From positions 1 to 60,502 of the forward strand of contig JBEGVZ010000075.1 in the NCBI GenBank assembly GCA_041178085.1: a stretch of 60,502 nucleotides of DNA. The letters are read 5' to 3'. Made by a program: the position numbers and the translations under genes. Each line of letters begins with the position of its first letter. The first letter of the stretch is position 1. This DNA is from Pseudomonadota bacterium (GTDB taxonomy: Bacteria > Bdellovibrionota_B > Oligoflexia > Oligoflexales > RGVZ01). Positions 2,842 to 35,169 of this stretch are shown here, piece after piece. The notes below the pieces were generated by a model. It saw only the letters and a program-made list of their open reading frames with translations. It was not told the DNA's origin and made no database searches.

Positions 2842-2864
2842 AAATAATTGGCGGCAAAGAAGAA

Positions 2865-2891
2865 GGCCCGGCGGAACAAGTCCGCCGGGCC
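2865..2891. terminator. Intrinsic terminator hairpin between convergent genes
   Basis: Perfect 11-bp stem GGCCCGGCGGA-acaag-TCCGCCGGGCC; T-rich tails on both strands. Confidence 0.8.
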
Positions 2892-2952
2892 CTTTATCCT
2901 GTGTTATAGCGCATCATGCCATAAGGCCACTGGGGCCGCAGGATGTGCAACC

Positions 2953-3390
2953 TTAGTCGTTGCAGCAGCAGTCTTCGCATTCACAGTCGCAGTCACCGCA
3001 GGAACCGCCGTCACAGCAGTCGCAGTTATCGCAACCGCAGTCACAGCAGTGATCCTTGGCACCGCAGTCGCCACAGCTGCAGTCATCGCAGCCGCAATCG
3101 CAGTCACCGCAGGATCCGCCATCGCAGCAGTCGCAGTCATCGCAACCGCAGTCGCAGCAATGATCGCAGCCGTCGTCACAGCCATCATCACAACCGTCGT
3201 CGCAACCATCATCACACCCATCATCACAGCCGTCGTGATGGTCGTTGGTCTTGGCATCGTGGTGCTGTGCTTCCGTCGTGTGGCTGGCTTTTACGGGAGC
3301 TTTTCCGGCGGCAACAGGTGCGCCGTAGAGCTTGACAGAGAAGCCGAGCAGGAACATCAGGGCAAAAAGTTTGGTAAGGAAACGCTGCAT
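2953..3390 (-). CDS. Secreted Cys/Asp-rich repeat protein, metallothionein-like
   Basis: SD AAGGAG before ATG; signal peptide; His-rich linker; (DGCD)x6 then two 14-Cys modules; synonymous variation among the repeats preserves this frame. Confidence 0.85.
   Translation of the reverse strand: MQRFLTKLFALMFLLGFSVKLYGAPVAAGKAPVKASHTTEAQHHDAKTNDHHDGCDDGCDDGCDDGCDDGCDDGCDHCCDCGCDDCDCCDGGSCGDCDCGCDDCSCGDCGAKDHCCDCGCDNCDCCDGGSCGDCDCECEDCCCND
3163..3234 (-). repeat. Six tandem 12-bp coding repeats (DGCD)x6
   Basis: Plus-strand units atcgcagccgtc, gtcacagccatc, atcacaaccgtc, gtcgcaaccatc, atcacacccatc, atcacagccgtc differ only at third codon positions of the minus frame. Confidence 0.9.
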
Positions 3391-3392
3391 GA

Positions 3393-3480
3393 TGAACTCC
3401 TTGTTTCATGCGTTAATCAAAAAAAGATACGAATGTCAGAACGTGAATGCGCGGGTCAGACTAAGCGAGGAGGACGTTCA
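3393..3480 (-). promoter_or_regulatory. Putative anti-SD/SD pairing between the leader's E-R-P codons and the downstream RBS
   Basis: mRNA UGAACGUCCU (3480-3471) is complementary to AGGAGUUCA (3401-3393): 9 bp with one bulged G. Confidence 0.5.
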
Positions 3481-3833
3481 AGTCCGCCCAGCCAGCCATC
3501 CGCACGTAAGAGCGAAGCCTGGAACAAAAGCGGCAAGCCTTGATCGTTCAAGTAGGCCGGTACTGAACCAGTCTCCGGGTCGACCGGTTCCATGAGCATG
3601 GGGCAAGAGAAATGTGCGCAAGAATCACCGCAACAATCCCCGTCCTCACCTTGTTCATCTTCACAGCAGCAGCCTGAATCCATGCCGTCGGATGAGGCGT
3701 TTTCGATATTCTGGGAAAGATTGGTTTGAGTCAGCGCCGCATCAAGGTCAAACAGTGCCCATTGCGCGGCAGCTCGTCCGGCGAAGGTCACCGTGATGCA
3801 AAGAACAAGGATGTAACGCAGCGCTGTCATCAT
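3456..3833 (-). CDS. Secreted Cys-cluster leader protein ending in ERPPR (DUF2946/CruR/CutF-like arrest peptide candidate)
   Basis: Signal peptide (..GRAAA/QW); CCC..CC..C....C cluster; ends LERPPRLV; start abuts the SDR stop. Confidence 0.72.
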   Translation of the reverse strand: MMTALRYILVLCITVTFAGRAAAQWALFDLDAALTQTNLSQNIENASSDGMDSGCCCEDEQGEDGDCCGDSCAHFSCPMLMEPVDPETGSVPAYLNDQGLPLLFQASLLRADGWLGGLERPPRLV

Positions 3834-4637
3834 TCACCATGGTAGCACTTTTTTACCCCGCAGGAACAAGCCATTGATGGCTTTTGAGGCACCAATGGAG
3901 GCCACAAGGCGCGGGTCGCGTCCGGTATTTTTCGGCAAAGTGGCAAGCCAGACAATCATTTCCGCGCCTTGCGTCACGGTAACGTTTGCTCCTTCTCCAC
4001 CCATTTCTGTCTGCACCCACCCCGGACAGACTGCGTTGCAGAGGATATCGGGTTCGTTCAGTTCGCTTTCAACTTCCGCTGCCACTATTTTAGTCAATGC
4101 ATTGAGGGAAACCTTTGACAGGCGATAGCCAGGAAAACCTCCGCCCATCTCATGCATCTGACCCATTGCGCTCGACACATTGACGATCCGGCCATGATGT
4201 TGCCGTTGCATGTAGGGCATGATCAGCTGGGTCAGGACGAGGGGGCCGTAAACGTTCACATCCATGGTCTGACGGATGAGTCCAAGCTTGGCATCGAATA
4301 CGCTGGGTGATCCACCGCGCGCCCGGGAGGGGTCCAGGAATATTCCCGCGTTATTGATCAACGCATCTACGCGCCCCAGGTTGGTGTCGATGAACAGGCG
4401 CAAGTCGTTGGCGACCTTGGTGTCGTCGAGCCTTTGCACATCGAGCTGGTAAAAGAGGACGTCGTGGCCTTCCCCGGCCAGAACGCGCGTGGCCTTCTGC
4501 CCTTTTGTGTCGTCCCGCGCAATCATCAATACGCGGTATCCCCGGATGCCCAGTTGGCGGGAAACCTCGAAGCCAATCCCCCGGTTGGCGCCCGTAACGA
4601 GCGCAACAGGCTTGCTTGTGTCGGACGCGGGCACCAA
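3834..4637 (-). CDS. SDR family oxidoreductase (carbonyl reductase-like)
   Basis: TGANRGIG, NNAG, VSS, YRLSK, CPGWVQT.MGG. Confidence 0.93.
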   Translation of the reverse strand: MVPASDTSKPVALVTGANRGIGFEVSRQLGIRGYRVLMIARDDTKGQKATRVLAGEGHDVLFYQLDVQRLDDTKVANDLRLFIDTNLGRVDALINNAGIFLDPSRARGGSPSVFDAKLGLIRQTMDVNVYGPLVLTQLIMPYMQRQHHGRIVNVSSAMGQMHEMGGGFPGYRLSKVSLNALTKIVAAEVESELNEPDILCNAVCPGWVQTEMGGEGANVTVTQGAEMIVWLATLPKNTGRDPRLVASIGASKAINGLFLRGKKVLPW

Positions 4638-4647
4638 TTTGTGACCT

Positions 4648-6213
4648 CTAGCGCATGTTTTTCAGGCAATTACGCTGTGCTTCTTTTTTAAGCATAGCAC
4701 AGGTTGCGCGCCAATCAGCCATCACCCGGGCACGGGTCTTCTCGTCTTTCAAGGTATCGATAGCGGTTTTTACTTTTTTCGCCCGCATCGCATTGCGCCC
4801 GGAAAAGCCGTCCGGCATCGTCTTCGCCAGATCAAGCCAGTCACGGAGTCCCTGTTCAAACGCACCCTGGGGTAGCGCGTCTGGTGGGACTTTGCTTTGC
4901 AGGACCAGGTCGCTGACCATCCATTGAATCCTGGTCGCGTTGCCTTGTGCGCTCTGGCGGGCCTTGCGTGACCATTCAAGCGCCGCGGGCCATTCTTTGG
5001 CTTCCAGATGGATCATCGCAAGCGAGGACTGGTAGTACCAGGGAGTGTCGCTGCTGGCTGCTTCACGCTGCAGGATTTCCTTTGCCTTGTCGACATTCCC
5101 GGTGGCGGACAGGAGCATGGCTGAGTCAGTGACGATGGCGTGACGGTCAAAGGCCGACTTGCTTGCTGCTTCAGTTTTGACTGCCACAGCAGCCGCTTCC
5201 TTGCGGATCTTCTCCCATTCTTCCACGGTCAGGGCGGTTTTTGCCTTCAGCCAATTTGCAATTTCCCAGTGCAATGCGGTTGCCTGAAGCCGGTCTACTT
5301 CTGAGGTGGAGGCGCCGCCGGCGGCAAGGCGTGCCGCGCCACCGAGCGCCAGCGTGGCAACTTCGACGCTCTCTTTTTCTCCGGCGCGTTCGATCCAGCT
5401 CATCGCACCCGCGACGAATGGACCGCGTGCCGGAACAAGGGAGGAATCGTTTGCGGTGACAATCTTCAACAGTTCACGCGGTGAATCCGTCTCCAGATTC
5501 AGCAGGCGCGCAGCGAGCAACCCGCGGATTTCTTCGTGGGGGCATTTCTGAAGCAACTGGCGCAGCATCAATGCAGCCTTTTGGATGGCTTTTGCCTGGG
5601 GGTCAGGCGAAGTCTCCACCGGATCCCACGTGTAGGCAAGGAGGCGCCAGTCATCAAGGCTCGCCTTTCCGGATAGCGCCCTTTTGCGAACGCCTTCCAA
5701 GACGGCTGAACTTCCGCCTTTGCTTTTCCGTGATTCTTCCAGGGCGGGCGTGATCAGTGCCTTGAATTCGTCGAAGTTCACAAACTCTGCAAGGCGGAGT
5801 TGCTCTTTCATGGACGATGCTGCGGACTTTTCTTTTCCCTTGCGCTTGGGCTTGTCTGGCGTCAGCACAAGGACTGTCGGATATCCAGATACGGCAAGCT
5901 TTTCCCCCCATTCCTGCGCGCCGGCTTCGTCTCCGTCCAGGTAAATGCGGACGAATCCCTCTGTCGCGGAGGAAAAACCGGGATGACTGAAAACCTGTGA
6001 CTTGAGTTGGTTGCAAGGAGGGCACCAGACTGCTCCCCAATACAATAAGACCGGTTGATGGTTCCTCTGCGCTTGTTCGAGTGCTTCACCGACGGGCAAT
6101 TTGGACCACAGTTTACGGAATGCCTCGTCGTCAGCAGCTTGTGCGACGGATCCATGCAACGCGGCGCAAGTGATCAGCCATAAGCTTGCAAAATGATTGC
6201 GTACGGACATCAT
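4648..6213 (-). CDS. Secreted thioredoxin-domain protein with helical/TPR-like C-terminus
   Basis: Signal peptide MMSVRNHF...AQA/ADD; YWGAVWCPPCNQLK; GYPT cis-Pro motif; helical repeats (PWYYQSSLA). Start uncertain (6210-6234). Confidence 0.8.
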   Translation of the reverse strand: MMSVRNHFASLWLITCAALHGSVAQAADDEAFRKLWSKLPVGEALEQAQRNHQPVLLYWGAVWCPPCNQLKSQVFSHPGFSSATEGFVRIYLDGDEAGAQEWGEKLAVSGYPTVLVLTPDKPKRKGKEKSAASSMKEQLRLAEFVNFDEFKALITPALEESRKSKGGSSAVLEGVRKRALSGKASLDDWRLLAYTWDPVETSPDPQAKAIQKAALMLRQLLQKCPHEEIRGLLAARLLNLETDSPRELLKIVTANDSSLVPARGPFVAGAMSWIERAGEKESVEVATLALGGAARLAAGGASTSEVDRLQATALHWEIANWLKAKTALTVEEWEKIRKEAAAVAVKTEAASKSAFDRHAIVTDSAMLLSATGNVDKAKEILQREAASSDTPWYYQSSLAMIHLEAKEWPAALEWSRKARQSAQGNATRIQWMVSDLVLQSKVPPDALPQGAFEQGLRDWLDLAKTMPDGFSGRNAMRAKKVKTAIDTLKDEKTRARVMADWRATCAMLKKEAQRNCLKNMR

Positions 6214-6361
6214 TTGGAAATTCCTCAATTGCATAAAACCCCTGGAATGACTGGCCTTGCAGCCAATTCGCGTTTCTTCGTAAAACGCGTTTGTGGTGCT
6301 AGCATACCAACTCAAATGTAGCTCGTCGCGTGAAACAAACTTCGATACAGGGGAGCTTCCC

Positions 6362-8167
6362 ATGAAACAGCAAGGCTCACGGCGATGGTCATCGCGCTAT
6401 TTCCTGACCGGTTCGCTGATCCGTTCAGTCATTGCATCGATTGCGCTCGTATTGCCAATACCAGGATTGGCTGCTGCCGACGCAGCGAAAGACGGGTCAA
6501 TCCATGTCGACCTCAAGTTCAACATCGAGGACCCATCAACCAGCGGACGTTGTCGTGCGGTGGACAGTTGCCGGCCGTGGGCCGAGGAACTGCCAGACTA
6601 CCGGCGCGAGCTTTTTCCGGTCGTCCCGGTACGCACAGTGAAGGTTCTGATACCACCGGGTCAGGAATACGCGGGCCTCAGCGTCGATGCCGGTGAGGGC
6701 GCAGAAATGGATTACGTCCCGGAGTTTTCCGGGCGCAATCGCGTGATTTCCCTGGGCTATGATCCGCGCAAGTTTTTGCCGCGTTACATGGGCGGAGTCT
6801 ATCCCCAGAAAGTGACTGGCGAAGTGCAACTGACGGACTTGCGTGGCTTCACGTTTGTCGAAGTACCTGTGTATCCATTTCAGGTAACCGGACCCGGCAC
6901 AGCACGTTACTTCAACTCGATCAAGGTGTCGGTTCAAACAAGGCCTGCCGCCAGCATGCCACGCAGTTCCCTCATGCGCCCGAACCTGGCCAGGGATTAC
7001 GAACTCGCCGTCCGGAACGTCGACAACGGCGTTCTTGCGCCGAAGGTCTGGTGGCAAATTCCGGCGCGGGATGAGGCGCCTGTCGGTTATTTGATCATCG
7101 GCAAGCAGGCGATCATCGGTGACGAGTCGAACACGGCTCTGCGTCCGTTGATTGAAGAGAAACGTGCGCGTGGCCTGAATGTCGAAATGGTTTCCCTTGA
7201 ATCGATCGCTGCCGGCGGCACTGTTGCGTCCAGCGCGCAGATCCGTGAATTTATCAAGCAAGCCTACGTGAGTCGCAGCATCGATTTTGTGCTGCTGGTG
7301 GGCGATAAGGCGAACTTGCCTTGGCAGAAAATCCGTTCCGGGATCAACGGCAACGGCGATCCTGTCCCGTCCGACCAGTATTACGCTTGCCTTGACGGGA
7401 CATTCACAGGCTCGACAAGTTCCTATGACTGGAATTGTGAAGTCGCAGTTGGACGTGTTGGTGTGAGCAATTCCAGCCAGCTTGCTGTATGGGTCAGCAA
7501 GCACATGGCCCTGGTCGAGGCAGCCAAGGCCGGGCGTACGACGCAGGCGCTTTCATACGGCGAAGAACTCGACAGCTCGACCCTTGGCAGTTGGGTCCTT
7601 GAGCATCTGGTCACGGGGCGTTCCGTGGCCCCGGCAACGGTGGGCTTCCCGGCCTCGACGGTTTTCACCAAGCTATACGATCAGTTCCGGACGCCGGTCA
7701 GTGCGTCGACAATGCTGAAAACCATGGAAGAAGGAGATTTTCATGTGCTGAATCACCTGGGTCACGCAAATTCGGATTACGCCCTTCGCATGAACGCGAG
7801 TCGCATCCCGGATTTCAAGTCCCGTCCGGCATTCTTCTATTCTCAGGGGTGTTACCCCAACAATCCGGACGTCGACAATTGGACCATCCAGGCCACGCGT
7901 TTCCCGGATTTCGGACCAGCGGCGATGATCTCGAACACGCGCTACGGCTGGTATCAGCCAGGGCGGGGCGGCGAGGGGAGCTCTGCCGTGTTGCACCGTG
8001 CCTTCTGGTCTCAGCGGTTCAAGGGCGGTATCAAGGCCATTGGCCAGATGAACCACTTCGCAAAGGCCGAGGTCCTTTCGGTGGACCGCTCGTCCCTCAT
8101 GGTGTACACAGCTCTTGAGTCAAACCTCATTGGCGACCCAGAACTGGACCTCATGATCGGCCAGTAA
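6362..8167 (+). CDS. Secreted C25 (gingipain-like) cysteine peptidase
   Basis: SD GGGGAG before ATG 6362; propeptide-like region; FVLLVGD, SDQYYA.LDG, VAVGR, catalytic HLGH and QGC, terminal NLIGDP. Confidence 0.87.
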   Translation: MKQQGSRRWSSRYFLTGSLIRSVIASIALVLPIPGLAAADAAKDGSIHVDLKFNIEDPSTSGRCRAVDSCRPWAEELPDYRRELFPVVPVRTVKVLIPPGQEYAGLSVDAGEGAEMDYVPEFSGRNRVISLGYDPRKFLPRYMGGVYPQKVTGEVQLTDLRGFTFVEVPVYPFQVTGPGTARYFNSIKVSVQTRPAASMPRSSLMRPNLARDYELAVRNVDNGVLAPKVWWQIPARDEAPVGYLIIGKQAIIGDESNTALRPLIEEKRARGLNVEMVSLESIAAGGTVASSAQIREFIKQAYVSRSIDFVLLVGDKANLPWQKIRSGINGNGDPVPSDQYYACLDGTFTGSTSSYDWNCEVAVGRVGVSNSSQLAVWVSKHMALVEAAKAGRTTQALSYGEELDSSTLGSWVLEHLVTGRSVAPATVGFPASTVFTKLYDQFRTPVSASTMLKTMEEGDFHVLNHLGHANSDYALRMNASRIPDFKSRPAFFYSQGCYPNNPDVDNWTIQATRFPDFGPAAMISNTRYGWYQPGRGGEGSSAVLHRAFWSQRFKGGIKAIGQMNHFAKAEVLSVDRSSLMVYTALESNLIGDPELDLMIGQ

Positions 8168-32088: not shown

Positions 32089-35000
32089 ATGAATATCTCA
32101 GAAATTTCCATCCGGCGGCCGGTATTCGCCTGGATGCTCATGGCGAGCTTGATCCTGTTTGGCTGGCTGGGCTTTCGCCAGATGGGTATTAGCCAGCTGC
32201 CTGATGTCGATTTCCCCGTGGTTTCCATTTCCACTGCCCTGGAAGGTGCCTCGCCCGAGGTGATGGAAGCAGATGTGGTGGACTTGATTGAGAACGCCGT
32301 GATCTCAGTCGATGGCATCACAAGCATTTCCAGTTCGATGCGACAGGGGTCTGCAAACGTCAGTCTTGAGTTTGACCTGGACAAGGACCTTGATATTGCC
32401 GTTCAGGAAATCCAGACGCGCCTGGCTCAGATCCAGCGACGTCTTCCCCGGGACACGGAAGTGCCGAGTGTTTCTAAATCCAACCCGGAGGACCAGCCGA
32501 TCATGTGGCTGGCGGTATCGTCAGACAAGATGTCGCGGCGTGAACTGATGGCCTTTGCCCGCGACCAATTACGCAGTCGCTTCCTGACCGTGCCCGGTGT
32601 GGCGGATATCAACCTCGGCGGCCTGGTCGACCCCGCAATCCGAGTCGATTTGACTTCCAGTGATCTTGCCCGCTACCAGATGACGGTTTCCGATGTCATC
32701 GGCGCAATCCGTTCGGAGCATGTGGAGTTGCCGGCCGGACGTATCGAGAATTCCGACAAGGAATTGTCGATTCGCGCACTGGGTGAGGCTAAAAGCGCGG
32801 AGGAAATGGGAGCCCTGCCAGTGGCCCGGCGTGGTGGCGGTCCGGTTTTTTCCAACATTCGTTTGCGCGATCTTGCCAAAGTGGATGACGGGCTCGTCGA
32901 TGCGCGGCGCCGCAGCCGGGCCATGGGAGCGCCCGCTGTTGGATTCGGCATCAAAAAGCAGCGCGGATCCAATGCCGTGGCAGTAGCCAAGGCGGTCAAG
33001 GCGCGCCTTGCCGAAGTGCAGAAATCTCTTCCTGAAGGGATGAATATTGGTGTCAATTTTGATTCCACCAAATTCATCGAAGAAAGCATCGATGAACTCA
33101 ATTTCACCCTGGTTTTGTCTGCGATCCTGACGGCTCTCGTCTGTTGGATGTTCCTCGGATCGTTCTCGGCGACCATCAACGTCATTCTGGCCATCCCGAC
33201 TTCGATCATCGGCAGCTTCATTGTTTTGAAGGCCCTTGGCTTCACCCTGAACCTGTTTACCTTGCTCGGTCTTTCACTTGCCATTGGTATCGTTGTCGAC
33301 GACGCGATCATGGTGTTGGAGAACATCGTCCGCCACCGCGAAATGAAAAAAGGCAAAGTCAAGGCAGCATTGGACGGGTCCCGCGAGATCGGCTTTGCGG
33401 CCCTTGCCGCCACCATTGCAGTGGTGGCGATCTTCCTGCCCGTTGCCTTCATGAAGGGCCTGATCGGCAAGTATTTCTTCCAGTTCGGTGTGACCATTTC
33501 GGTCGCTGTGTTGCTGTCCCTTCTTGAAGCGCTGACCCTTGCGCCTATGCGTTGCTCGCAATTCCTCTATGTCGGCGAACGCACCACGCGCATCGGACGT
33601 GCGGTGGAGAGCGGGTTTACTGGCCTTGCAATGGTTTACGGCAAGATCCTGCCTTGGGCCCTCAGGCATCGCTGGTGGACGATCGGCCTGTCGATTGTCT
33701 TGTTTGCCAGCAGTCTTCTAATGATCAAGCCTTTGCGCAAAGAATTTGTTCCGCCCCAGGATCAGGGATCCCTCCTGATCCGGATGAAGGCCCCCGAAGG
33801 GTCTTCGCTGGATTATACGGACCGCAAGATGGCAGAGGTGGAAAAGTTGATCGCTGCCAACGCCGATGTGGCTCGTTATTTTGGGTCCGTTGGTGGTTTT
33901 GGTGGTGGCGATGTCAATTCGGCGATTCTGTTCGTCACGCTGAAACCGCCTCGTGAACGCGCCGTGAATCCGGAACTGGGGCGTCGACCATCGCAGCAGG
34001 ATTACGCCACCCTGATGCGCAAGCAATTTTCCGAACTTAAGGGCATGAAGGTTTTCGTTCAGGACATGTCGCTGAGTGGCTTTGGCGGCAGACGCGGATA
34101 TCCCGTTGAATTCAATCTGCGTGGACCGGACTGGCAGGGGTTGACCGCTGCGGTGGACAAGGTCAAGGGTGTCATGGAAGCCTCTGGCCTGGTCACCGAT
34201 GTGGATAGCGATTTCCGCGGCTTTGTCGATGAAGTGCATGTCGTGCCAGACCGCCAGAAAGCGGCCCTGCGTGGGGTCAGCGCTTCGGATATTGGCGAAA
34301 CAGTCGGGGCGTTATTTGGTGGTGCGGTTGCAGGATCTTTCTCTGGCGGTGGTCATCGCTACGATATTCGGGTTCGCCTGGTTTCCGCTGACCGCTCCAG
34401 TGCTGACGACCTTAAGAAAGTTCTTCTGCGCAACAATCGTGGTGAGCTGGTTCCGCTGGGAGAGGTCGCCCAGATCAAAGTGGAGAAAGGTCTGACTTCG
34501 ATCACGCGCCAGGACCGGGAGCGTGCGGTGTCAGTGTATGCGAACCTCGCCCCCAAAGTCTCTCAGGCCGATGTCATTCGTAAGTTACAGGCGGATATCT
34601 CTGCGTCACTGCCGGAAGGCTACCGGCTGGTGCCGGGTGGCAGTTCTGAATCTTTTTCCGAGGCCCTTTCGGGACTGGTTTTTGCGTTGCTGCTTGGCAT
34701 TGCTGTGGCCTATATGGTGCTGGCTTCGCAATTCAACAGTTTCATCCACCCGGTAACGGTTTTGCTAGCCTTGCCTTTTTCGATCACAGGTGCCCTGGCA
34801 GGACTTCTTGTCACGGGCCAGAGCATCAACATTTACAGCGCAATCGGGATCATCCTGCTGACCGGTATCGTCAAGAAGAACTCCATCTTGCTGGTTGATT
34901 TCACCAACCAGCGGCGATCCGAGGGGCTTGGTGTCCATAAAGCCTTGATCGAAGCCTGTCCGACCCGCCTGCGACCAATTCTGATGACTTCGTTTTCGAC

Positions 35001-35169
35001 GATTGTCGCAGCAGTGCCAGCTGCGCTTACCTTTGGCCCGGGTGCAGAAAGCCGCGCGCCGATGGCAGTTGCCGTGATTGGCGGAGTGCTGGTGTCGACG
35101 GTCATGACCTTGCTGGTAGTGCCCTGTTTCTACAGTTTCTTGCCGGGGCGGCCAGAGACTGTTGAGTGA
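32089..35169 (+). CDS. RND efflux permease (AcrB/MdtB-like, HAE1)
   Basis: MNISEISIRRPV, GIVVDDAIMVLENI, KNSILLVDF, RLRPILMT. Confidence 0.96.
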   Translation: MNISEISIRRPVFAWMLMASLILFGWLGFRQMGISQLPDVDFPVVSISTALEGASPEVMEADVVDLIENAVISVDGITSISSSMRQGSANVSLEFDLDKDLDIAVQEIQTRLAQIQRRLPRDTEVPSVSKSNPEDQPIMWLAVSSDKMSRRELMAFARDQLRSRFLTVPGVADINLGGLVDPAIRVDLTSSDLARYQMTVSDVIGAIRSEHVELPAGRIENSDKELSIRALGEAKSAEEMGALPVARRGGGPVFSNIRLRDLAKVDDGLVDARRRSRAMGAPAVGFGIKKQRGSNAVAVAKAVKARLAEVQKSLPEGMNIGVNFDSTKFIEESIDELNFTLVLSAILTALVCWMFLGSFSATINVILAIPTSIIGSFIVLKALGFTLNLFTLLGLSLAIGIVVDDAIMVLENIVRHREMKKGKVKAALDGSREIGFAALAATIAVVAIFLPVAFMKGLIGKYFFQFGVTISVAVLLSLLEALTLAPMRCSQFLYVGERTTRIGRAVESGFTGLAMVYGKILPWALRHRWWTIGLSIVLFASSLLMIKPLRKEFVPPQDQGSLLIRMKAPEGSSLDYTDRKMAEVEKLIAANADVARYFGSVGGFGGGDVNSAILFVTLKPPRERAVNPELGRRPSQQDYATLMRKQFSELKGMKVFVQDMSLSGFGGRRGYPVEFNLRGPDWQGLTAAVDKVKGVMEASGLVTDVDSDFRGFVDEVHVVPDRQKAALRGVSASDIGETVGALFGGAVAGSFSGGGHRYDIRVRLVSADRSSADDLKKVLLRNNRGELVPLGEVAQIKVEKGLTSITRQDRERAVSVYANLAPKVSQADVIRKLQADISASLPEGYRLVPGGSSESFSEALSGLVFALLLGIAVAYMVLASQFNSFIHPVTVLLALPFSITGALAGLLVTGQSINIYSAIGIILLTGIVKKNSILLVDFTNQRRSEGLGVHKALIEACPTRLRPILMTSFSTIVAAVPAALTFGPGAESRAPMAVAVIGGVLVSTVMTLLVVPCFYSFLPGRPETVE

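Follow-up and report, generated by a model that had tools for sequence, protein, structure and literature searches.

A leader protein of 125 residues and a Cys-rich target protein encoded downstream of it form a conserved two-gene unit, which is present at all 11 of the loci found, all of them resembling a single Oligoflexales genus. We put at even odds the reading that the first protein is a CutF-type pausing leader, which would sense a thiophilic metal (at best guess copper) outside the cytoplasm and switch on the exported target as a metal sponge. The window, i.e. the whole stretch of 60,502 nucleotides that was analyzed, is contig C75, part of a 3.0-Mb, 96%-complete genome; unprefixed positions refer to it, and the features of the pair are collected in Table 1.

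Table 1. Positions of the features of the leader-target pair in the window
Feature	Positions	Strand	Basis or remarks
Candidate extended −10 element, TG-n-TACCAT, within the final codons of the SDR gene that precedes the leader	3839..3847	-	putative function
CutF-like leader ORF of 125 aa, or 124 aa with a start at the second ATG (3830)	3456..3833	-	ORF and alignment of relatives; purifying selection
Predicted Sec signal peptide of leader (residues 1–23, AAA/QW)	3765..3833	-	hydropathy 2.6–2.9 in 6/6 full-length leaders; RAAAQW conserved
Acidic Cys cluster of leader, CCC...CCxxxC-x4-C (residues 55–77)	3603..3671	-	conserved in 7/7 leaders with the region intact
C-terminal tail of leader, DG-x5-ERPP-x3-stop, candidate ribosome pause site	3456..3500	-	alignment
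Intergenic region, 65 nt, with SD AAGGAG (3402–3397) and invariant GGAGTTC (3400–3394)	3391..3455	-	
Target ORF of 145 aa with a predicted signal peptide (1–23), a linker that contains His, and a Cys/Asp/Gly core; composition metallothionein-like	2953..3390	-	
Cys/Asp-rich core of target (residues 55–145)	2956..3228	-	37% Cys, 33% Asp; CC, CxC, CxxC motifs; no aromatics
Terminator-like hairpin, common to the pair and the convergent pirin gene	2863..2893	.	

Gene Order, Distribution, and Coding Status of the Pair

The motifs reported in the first-pass annotation, i.e. a 125-aa ORF with a signal peptide, a 7-Cys cluster, and an LERPPR end lying 65 nt before a second Cys-rich ORF, are present as described, with the signal peptides predicted from hydropathy (maximum 11-residue Kyte-Doolittle values of 2.4–2.9) together with conserved cleavage-like sites. 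Both the gene order and the Pro-Pro end are kept in relatives (11/11 loci), with ERPP in 10 of the 10 loci where it is readable; the eleventh leader, that of G006, is cut at a contig edge, where the first bases (L029:1–30, G006:C207) look like what we take to be a sequencing-adapter remnant. Among 60 relatives, the target was convincingly matched in four of the six same-genus genomes (G001, G003, G004, and G006) and the leader in G001, G003, and G004; two weak target matches in G015 contain stops. Six further loci (L023–L028) came from metagenome and genome scans, and three other such records are duplicates of stretches already counted. The 11 loci fall in about four lineages (G000; G001 with L023–L026 and L028; G003; G004 with G006 and L027), so locus counts overstate independence. 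G003 keeps the pair with a different downstream neighbor, its upstream side being unassembled, and in G002 and G005, which belong to the same genus and are ~90% complete, the pair, the SDR gene, and the pirin gene were not found at the thresholds used.

At the level of the phylum, a target profile matched five of 131 genomes, all of one genus, and a leader profile five of 95, the fifth being G045 (E 0.001, inside a 435-aa frame). The pattern ERPPR-x2-stop occurs at 27 places in 22 of the 131 genomes, four of which are the known loci; the other 23 lie in frames of at most 79 codons without leader features. A protein database search with the leader returned only itself among six candidates, and one with the target gave 2 of 3376, a true relative (P0002) and an unrelated CDGG-repeat protein; none of 663 longer proteins matched a profile of the target N terminus. 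An ORF in G003 (L022:5150–6367, G003:C8) starts with a tandem (MAVT)n repeat, the opposite strand of which is the source of a weak CDG-repeat match. In crude ORF-based screens of the window's genome, RPP is absent from the last ten residues of all 1293 long ORFs (PP occurs there in 32), and 17 of 478 short signal-like ORFs have a PP tail; of these, the leader alone also has a Cys cluster and a clear gene downstream.

The end of the SDR gene directly precedes the leader, and upstream of the SDR gene is a gene for a thioredoxin (WCPPC)/TPR protein, predicted to be exported (4648–6363, − strand), with relatives in 8 of 22 family genomes. Divergent from the latter is a gene with a peptidase C25 (gingipain-family) domain (6293–8167, + strand), conserved in G001 and G004. 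On the other side of the pair, genes for pirin, a DUF4442 thioesterase-like protein, and TerC (841–2841), a stress-related neighborhood, hold their order in most loci, and strong hairpins are found 3′ of the target in 11/11. A family scan of the neighborhood found no metal-homeostasis gene of a known family adjoining the pair.

The sequence is repetitive and neither ORF has a database family match, as would be expected if one or both ORFs were spurious, whether as a low-complexity repeat or as the shadow of an antisense Ala/Val/Thr-rich frame (2848–3543, + strand, 231 codons) that overlies the Cys-rich gene. Strain differences fall on the first codon positions of that frame, which marks it as itself a shadow of the repeat. 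The dN/dS values given below, the conserved predicted signal peptides, the SD, and the third-position bias of strain differences (16 of 21 listed sites in the target) all speak for real genes, and the entire stretch lies within one contig in two sequencing runs from different studies, one of which is possibly the source of this DNA. Among the 20 runs listed, no RNA run carries the stretch, which speaks neither for nor against expression. Conservation effectively refutes the spurious-ORF reading, which we regard as extremely improbable.

The Leader Protein

The six full-length leaders have 121–126 residues. In the window's leader, Cys residues occupy positions 55–57, 67–68, 72, and 77, with one more in the signal, and the chain ends in GLERPPRLV-stop. 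Alignment identified four conserved blocks, i.e. the signal with RAAAQW, CCC, CCxxxC-x4-C, and DG-x5-ERPP; the mature N terminus, QWxxxDLD, is also conserved. Within the tail, the D, G, E, R, P, and P residues are invariant in 8/8 aligned leaders, the Pro-Pro pair is followed by three residues and a stop in 11/11 loci, and synonymous codon changes are seen. Leader dN/dS is ~0.2–0.33 in five of six pairs, dS being saturated in the sixth. CxxxC is found in 7/7 intact clusters, with a further CxxC or CxxxC in 6/7; CPxC occurs in five of the seven, and the window's leader and that of L027 lack a CXXC.

The spacing of the cluster relative to the tail is largely uniform. The CC, C, and C of the second block lie 54/53, 49, and 44 residues before the first Pro in six of seven leaders (56/55, 51, and 45 in L027), and an extra Cys, which the window's leader lacks, lies 41 residues before it in 6/7; the CCC-to-Pro distance varies between 65 and 71. 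The linker keeps a constant length at 22–56% identity, with the tail 64–93% identical. In CruR of Bordetella pertussis, according to the available text of PMC9426467, Cys-to-Pro spacing varies by no more than one or two residues, and an insertion of five breaks regulation. A fixed spacing with a drifting linker is counted for a pausing leader because CruR needs such spacing.

The same features bear on an alternative in which the product of the first gene is a plain exported partner rich in Cys, a metal chaperone or cofactor of the second, with a structural Pro-Pro tail and mere co-transcription of the two genes. A pure tether would not need the conserved QWxxxDLD mature N terminus, an RNA switch was looked for and not found (below), and CutF itself was, in the accessible literature, first interpreted in this way. 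However, the function of a mature protein hardly explains a fixed-length, fast-drifting linker, an invariant distance from tail to stop, and a constrained gap to the target, and we consider the partner-protein alternative improbable. In G004, the leader (L020:2641–2968, G004:C82) shows a net loss of 44 nt relative to L027, which removes three conserved Cys residues (CC and C) and shifts the frame; its tail and target are intact. Either decay or misassembly would account for this; the assembly comprises 770 contigs with 8% contamination.

A DUF4141 identity was considered for the leader and dismissed as chance: matches in six of eight leaders (Pfam/NCBIfam), over the signal/QW region, reach 19.7 bits against a cutoff of 30, and three weak plasmid matches to the DUF4141-like stretch were dismissed likewise. 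Features from the ESM atlas place DUF6660, DUF6769, CzcI, and DUF2946 as the nearest named clusters at 0.94–0.95, which serves as a lead only, the shared-feature counts (101–121) being low. A search of the genome found no further CutF-like leader, including upstream of a CzcA-type pump (C114) and a P1B ATPase (C104). An RND transporter encoded in the window (32095–35166, + strand) scores below the CzcA-family cutoff, which the C114 pump exceeds.

Comparison with Known Arrest Leaders

CutF, the leader of cutFOG in Rhodobacter capsulatus (bioRxiv 10.1101/2025.02.05.636593, as far as available), has Cys residues C69 and C73 and the C terminus PEPEGPPPRL118, according to the accessible text of PMC8456105. 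The rule set for CutF-like leaders in the available part of PMC9973294 comprises a length of at most 150 aa, PP at most 15 residues from the C terminus, a Sec signal, a same-strand gene at most 1000 nt downstream, and a Cys/His metal motif. The leader fits the five list-B filters of that study as far as these are testable, the Sec signal being judged by hydropathy and AAA/Q in 6/6. Comparison with CutF, made on its published description, reveals further likenesses: a length below 150 aa, a predicted Sec-type signal, CxxxC, PP near the C terminus followed by R-L, a short same-strand gap to a target predicted to be exported, and Cys residues 41–45 residues before the prolines. By arithmetic from the published sequences, as far as accessible, the Cys residues of CutF precede the first Pro by 45 and 41 residues, and those of CruR precede it by 51 and 48. 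In contrast to CutF, the present leader, from Oligoflexales, has 7–9 Cys residues in acidic CCC/CC clusters, ERPP in place of GPPP, no clear SD-shielding stem-loop, and a predicted Sec-type Cys/Asp peptide as its target, where that of CutF is a Tat multicopper oxidase.

With CruR (Bp2923, PF11162) the leader shares PP three residues before the stop, a conserved Cys-to-proline spacing, a likely position as first gene of its transcript, and pyrimidine-rich RNA near the stop. It differs in having neither a PF11162 match nor RAPP, in the lack of CxxC from the window's leader, in a gap of 59–69 nt (162 in CruR), and in a target that is not a TonB-dependent importer. The RAPP/RGPP peptides ApcA, ApdA, ApdP, and SecM are, in the available text of PMC12992588, likewise small secretory proteins with a C-terminal PP encoded before a same-strand gene; there, no substitute is tolerated for the Arg two residues ahead of the P-site Pro. 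In the leader, the Arg adjoins the PP instead of lying one residue away, and the essential Arg position is a Glu. Further background is given in the accessible portions of PMC8129111 and bioRxiv 2024.08.03.606492.

The leader had been likened to DUF2946 proteins with a RAPP-like C terminus. The HMM comparison does not bear out the former, with no PF11162 (DUF2946) match at E values up to 10 for 8/8 leaders and none at the locus in a genome search, and the latter is contradicted by the tail, since ERPP, found in 10/10 readable loci, fails the R-[AGSP]-P-P core with a Glu at the position of the irreplaceable Arg. Given both results, the leader may act like, yet is not filed in, DUF2946. Nor is ERPP a PPP sequence; the accessible literature gave no measured pause strength for RPPR, what was found there concerning RPPP. 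Stalling coupled to secretion had further been ascribed to DUF2946 leaders in general; in the sources as available, secretion coupling is shown for CutF only, and CruR does not need its signal.

A Candidate Promoter in the End of the SDR Gene

Extended −10 elements have the consensus TGnTAnnnT. A candidate of this type, TG-n-TACCAT, occurs in 7/7 loci that cover the SDR end, with an ATG 7–8 nt after it; such patterns have a frequency of 0.48 per kb in the genome, and a consensus promoter scan of the window did not pick up the element. The DNA of the last four SDR codons is nearly invariant across the seven loci, an observation made post hoc: a 12-nt window at the SDR end ties for the most invariant of 264, and the only one of 267 SDR columns with a rare codon in all seven loci (CTA, 2.4%, or ATA, 5.5%) is located here. 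Elsewhere, the synonymous sites of the SDR gene are largely scrambled, with 34 of 172 codons identical over three lineages. This suggests, from sequence, a near-leaderless transcript of ~1 kb that carries the pair alone and starts at the leader ATG, in which case the leader would be first in its operon, as DUF2946 genes are in the available text of PMC9426467. Translational coupling of the leader to the SDR gene is an alternative explanation of the conserved SDR end. A MerR-type 19-bp promoter was rejected: the spacing fits by eye, and the window shows no dyad symmetry there. The candidate extended −10 element, invariant and containing a rare codon at the end of the preceding gene, is a new feature of the locus.

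Coupling of Leader and Target

The gap between leader and target is 59–69 nt in 11/11 loci, and GGAGTTC is invariant in 9/9 aligned intergenic regions, TTC following GGAG in 5 of 417 other SD-bearing starts. The first-pass annotation envisaged a translational switch, which in its SD-unmasking form finds no backing in folding: no robust conserved SD-sequestering stem-loop was obtained. The cost of opening the start region falls at the 27th–61st percentile of 250 genes of the genome, and a mask that stands for a stalled ribosome shifts it by −3.3 to +0.7 kcal/mol (−0.5 in the window), within background; of nine loci, the cost is >3 kcal/mol lower in two, 0.3–0.5 lower in three (including the window), and higher in four. 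The duplex energy of tail and SD beats shuffles at P<0.05 in three of ten loci (P = 0.50 in the window). The codons for E-R-P pair with GGAGUUC in 87.5% of cells versus 25–57% for slid partners; covariation in this helix does not exceed that of shuffles (383/500), the GGAGUUC bases are equally accounted for by an AUG hairpin in 8/9 loci, and the RNAalifold helices 11–17/33–38 with the AUG hairpin lack covariation (61/500). An intrinsic attenuator at the leader end was also rejected, the hairpins (−9.5 to −28.8 kcal/mol) being inconsistent and the strongest, that of the window, having no adjacent U-run. Overall, of the proposed CutF/CruR logic, the gene order, the PP tail that always ends three residues short of the stop, and the Cys spacing are borne out; DUF2946 membership, RAPP, and the SD switch are not.

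EF-P and Rho are encoded in the genome, and the latter bears on regulation in the direction of CruR, in which a default pause keeps the target on in metal scarcity and metal relieves the pause so that Rho terminates, the target being a scavenging or storage protein. Consistent with this, the tail geometry is identical to that of CruR, and the RNA at the leader stop is C-rich and G-poor, with a C-over-G skew of at least the 95th percentile in 9/9 loci; a U-run directly follows the stop in 8/9 (6% background) and is absent in the window. However, Pro and Arg codons force part of the skew, which upstream is mostly explained by amino-acid content (P 0.01–0.86), the RAPP motif for default arrest is absent, and the unit includes no importer; we regard the CruR-like direction as quite improbable, slightly more so than the partner-protein reading. 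That metal would switch the target on rather than off seems highly likely.

The Target Protein

The first 25 residues of the target, i.e. the predicted signal ending YG/AP, are highly conserved and are followed by a His-containing linker and the core. After its hydrophobic N terminus, the mature target of the window has 34 Cys and 33 Asp among 122 residues; across the 11 loci, the core spans 50–102 residues with 30–37% Cys and 30–46% Asp, the target has 15–34 Cys residues (an odd number in five loci), and all mature chains lack aromatic residues. No Pfam match was found for the six targets searched and no PDB sequence match for the target alignment; a sub-threshold FliH match in NCBIfam is noise, the ESM atlas gave no usable match, and an AlphaFold2 model (pLDDT 41.6) is uninformative.

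Metallothioneins are characterized by high Cys content in CC, CxC, and CxxC motifs and by a lack of aromatics; acidity and export are not features of the classical members. The target resembles the bacterial SmtA, BmtA, and PmtA in its small size, ~30–37% Cys in CC, CxC, and CxxC motifs, and lack of aromatics. It differs from them in its predicted signal peptide, strongly acidic core, twofold variation in length, lack of a Pfam match, and putative control by a translational leader. Its composition fits a metallothionein-like chain, from which metal binding is proposed, and the variable Cys count, odd in five loci, with no aromatics would agree more with a metal-thiolate chain than with a fold fixed by disulfides. 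An oxidizing periplasm would tend to convert 34 thiols to disulfides; the thioredoxin/TPR protein, predicted to be exported, could maintain reduced periplasmic thiols.

These properties are also relevant to a reading with the same pausing leader in which the signal is the periplasmic thiol-disulfide state or export capacity and the target either buffers redox state or is an acidic, Ca-binding protein with disulfide bonds. The thioredoxin/TPR gene stands two genes upstream in G000, G001, G004, L025, L026, and L027, the target is about one-third Asp, and in the literature as accessible RAPP leaders precede thioredoxin and DsbA genes and the CutF model itself involves disulfides. Nevertheless, relatives of the thioredoxin occur in 4 of 14 sister-genus genomes where the pair was not found, no thioredoxin relative was found in G003 although that genome carries the pair, the pair seems to have its own promoter, and the Cys numbers of the target are odd and variable. 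The redox or export reading is considered unlikely, and the leader's signal is probably metal.

Proposed Mechanism

In the metal-sensing model, a promoter within the last SDR codons would start a near-leaderless mRNA, and the leader would be exported co-translationally, so that the Cys cluster, 41–54 residues back, would already be outside the tunnel, at or beyond the translocon, once Pro-Pro is being translated. Binding of metal, or loss of the disulfides it displaces, may then lengthen an EF-P-sensitive pause at ERPP. The paused ribosome would increase target output, possibly by releasing the target's ribosome-binding site, a route we tentatively prefer given the complementarity of the E-R-P codons with the invariant GGAGUUC; protection from Rho-dependent or U-tract termination, consistent with the skew, the U-run of 8/9 loci, and the presence of Rho, is a conceivable second route, to which we give somewhat less credence. 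The exported Cys/Asp protein would finally bind metal in the periplasm.

That the leader is a cis-acting pause regulator appears very probable. Also counted for the metal model is that no multicopper oxidase N-domain was found in the 96%-complete genome. Against it count the lack of a PF11162 match, the Glu of ERPP at the essential Arg position, the failure to find a conserved SD switch, the missing U-run in the window together with a skew mostly attributable to amino-acid content, the G004 broken leader with an intact target, the lack of the last Cys from the window's leader, the want of an adjoining metal-homeostasis gene of a known family, and the tendency of an oxidizing periplasm to form disulfides. 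The picture in its entirety, i.e. an exported, acidic, variable-length metallothionein gated by a transmembrane, metal-sensing nascent chain with its own arrest motif (DG-x5-ERPP), transcribed leaderless from a hidden promoter, is on balance doubtful.

Novelty and Significance

The first-pass annotation knew of no description of such a pairing, and this stands for one of its aspects. Published neighbors of such leaders, in the accessible parts of the literature, include outer-membrane efflux proteins, CusA/B/F, TonB receptors, PCuAC, CopC, YcnI, HupE/UreJ, oxidases, and thioredoxins; since CusF, PCuAC, CopC, and YcnI are among them, a leader ahead of a periplasmic metal-binding protein is in itself no novelty. 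New is the metallothionein-like nature of the target, which was not found for such a leader in the available open-access literature or in the supplements of PMC9973294 searched.

The regulatory logic is a known one, and the family is restricted to a single uncultured genus. The metal-sensing arrest leaders characterized so far number only two, and they act in opposite directions; the pair, compact (~1 kb) and self-contained, offers a test case in which natural variants already reveal the fixed features. If the proposed mechanism is true, the pair adds a third tail type and a new target class. Metal capture could profit from a metallothionein-like protein that is exported natively, and such a protein would raise the question of how 15–34 thiols stay usable in an oxidizing compartment.
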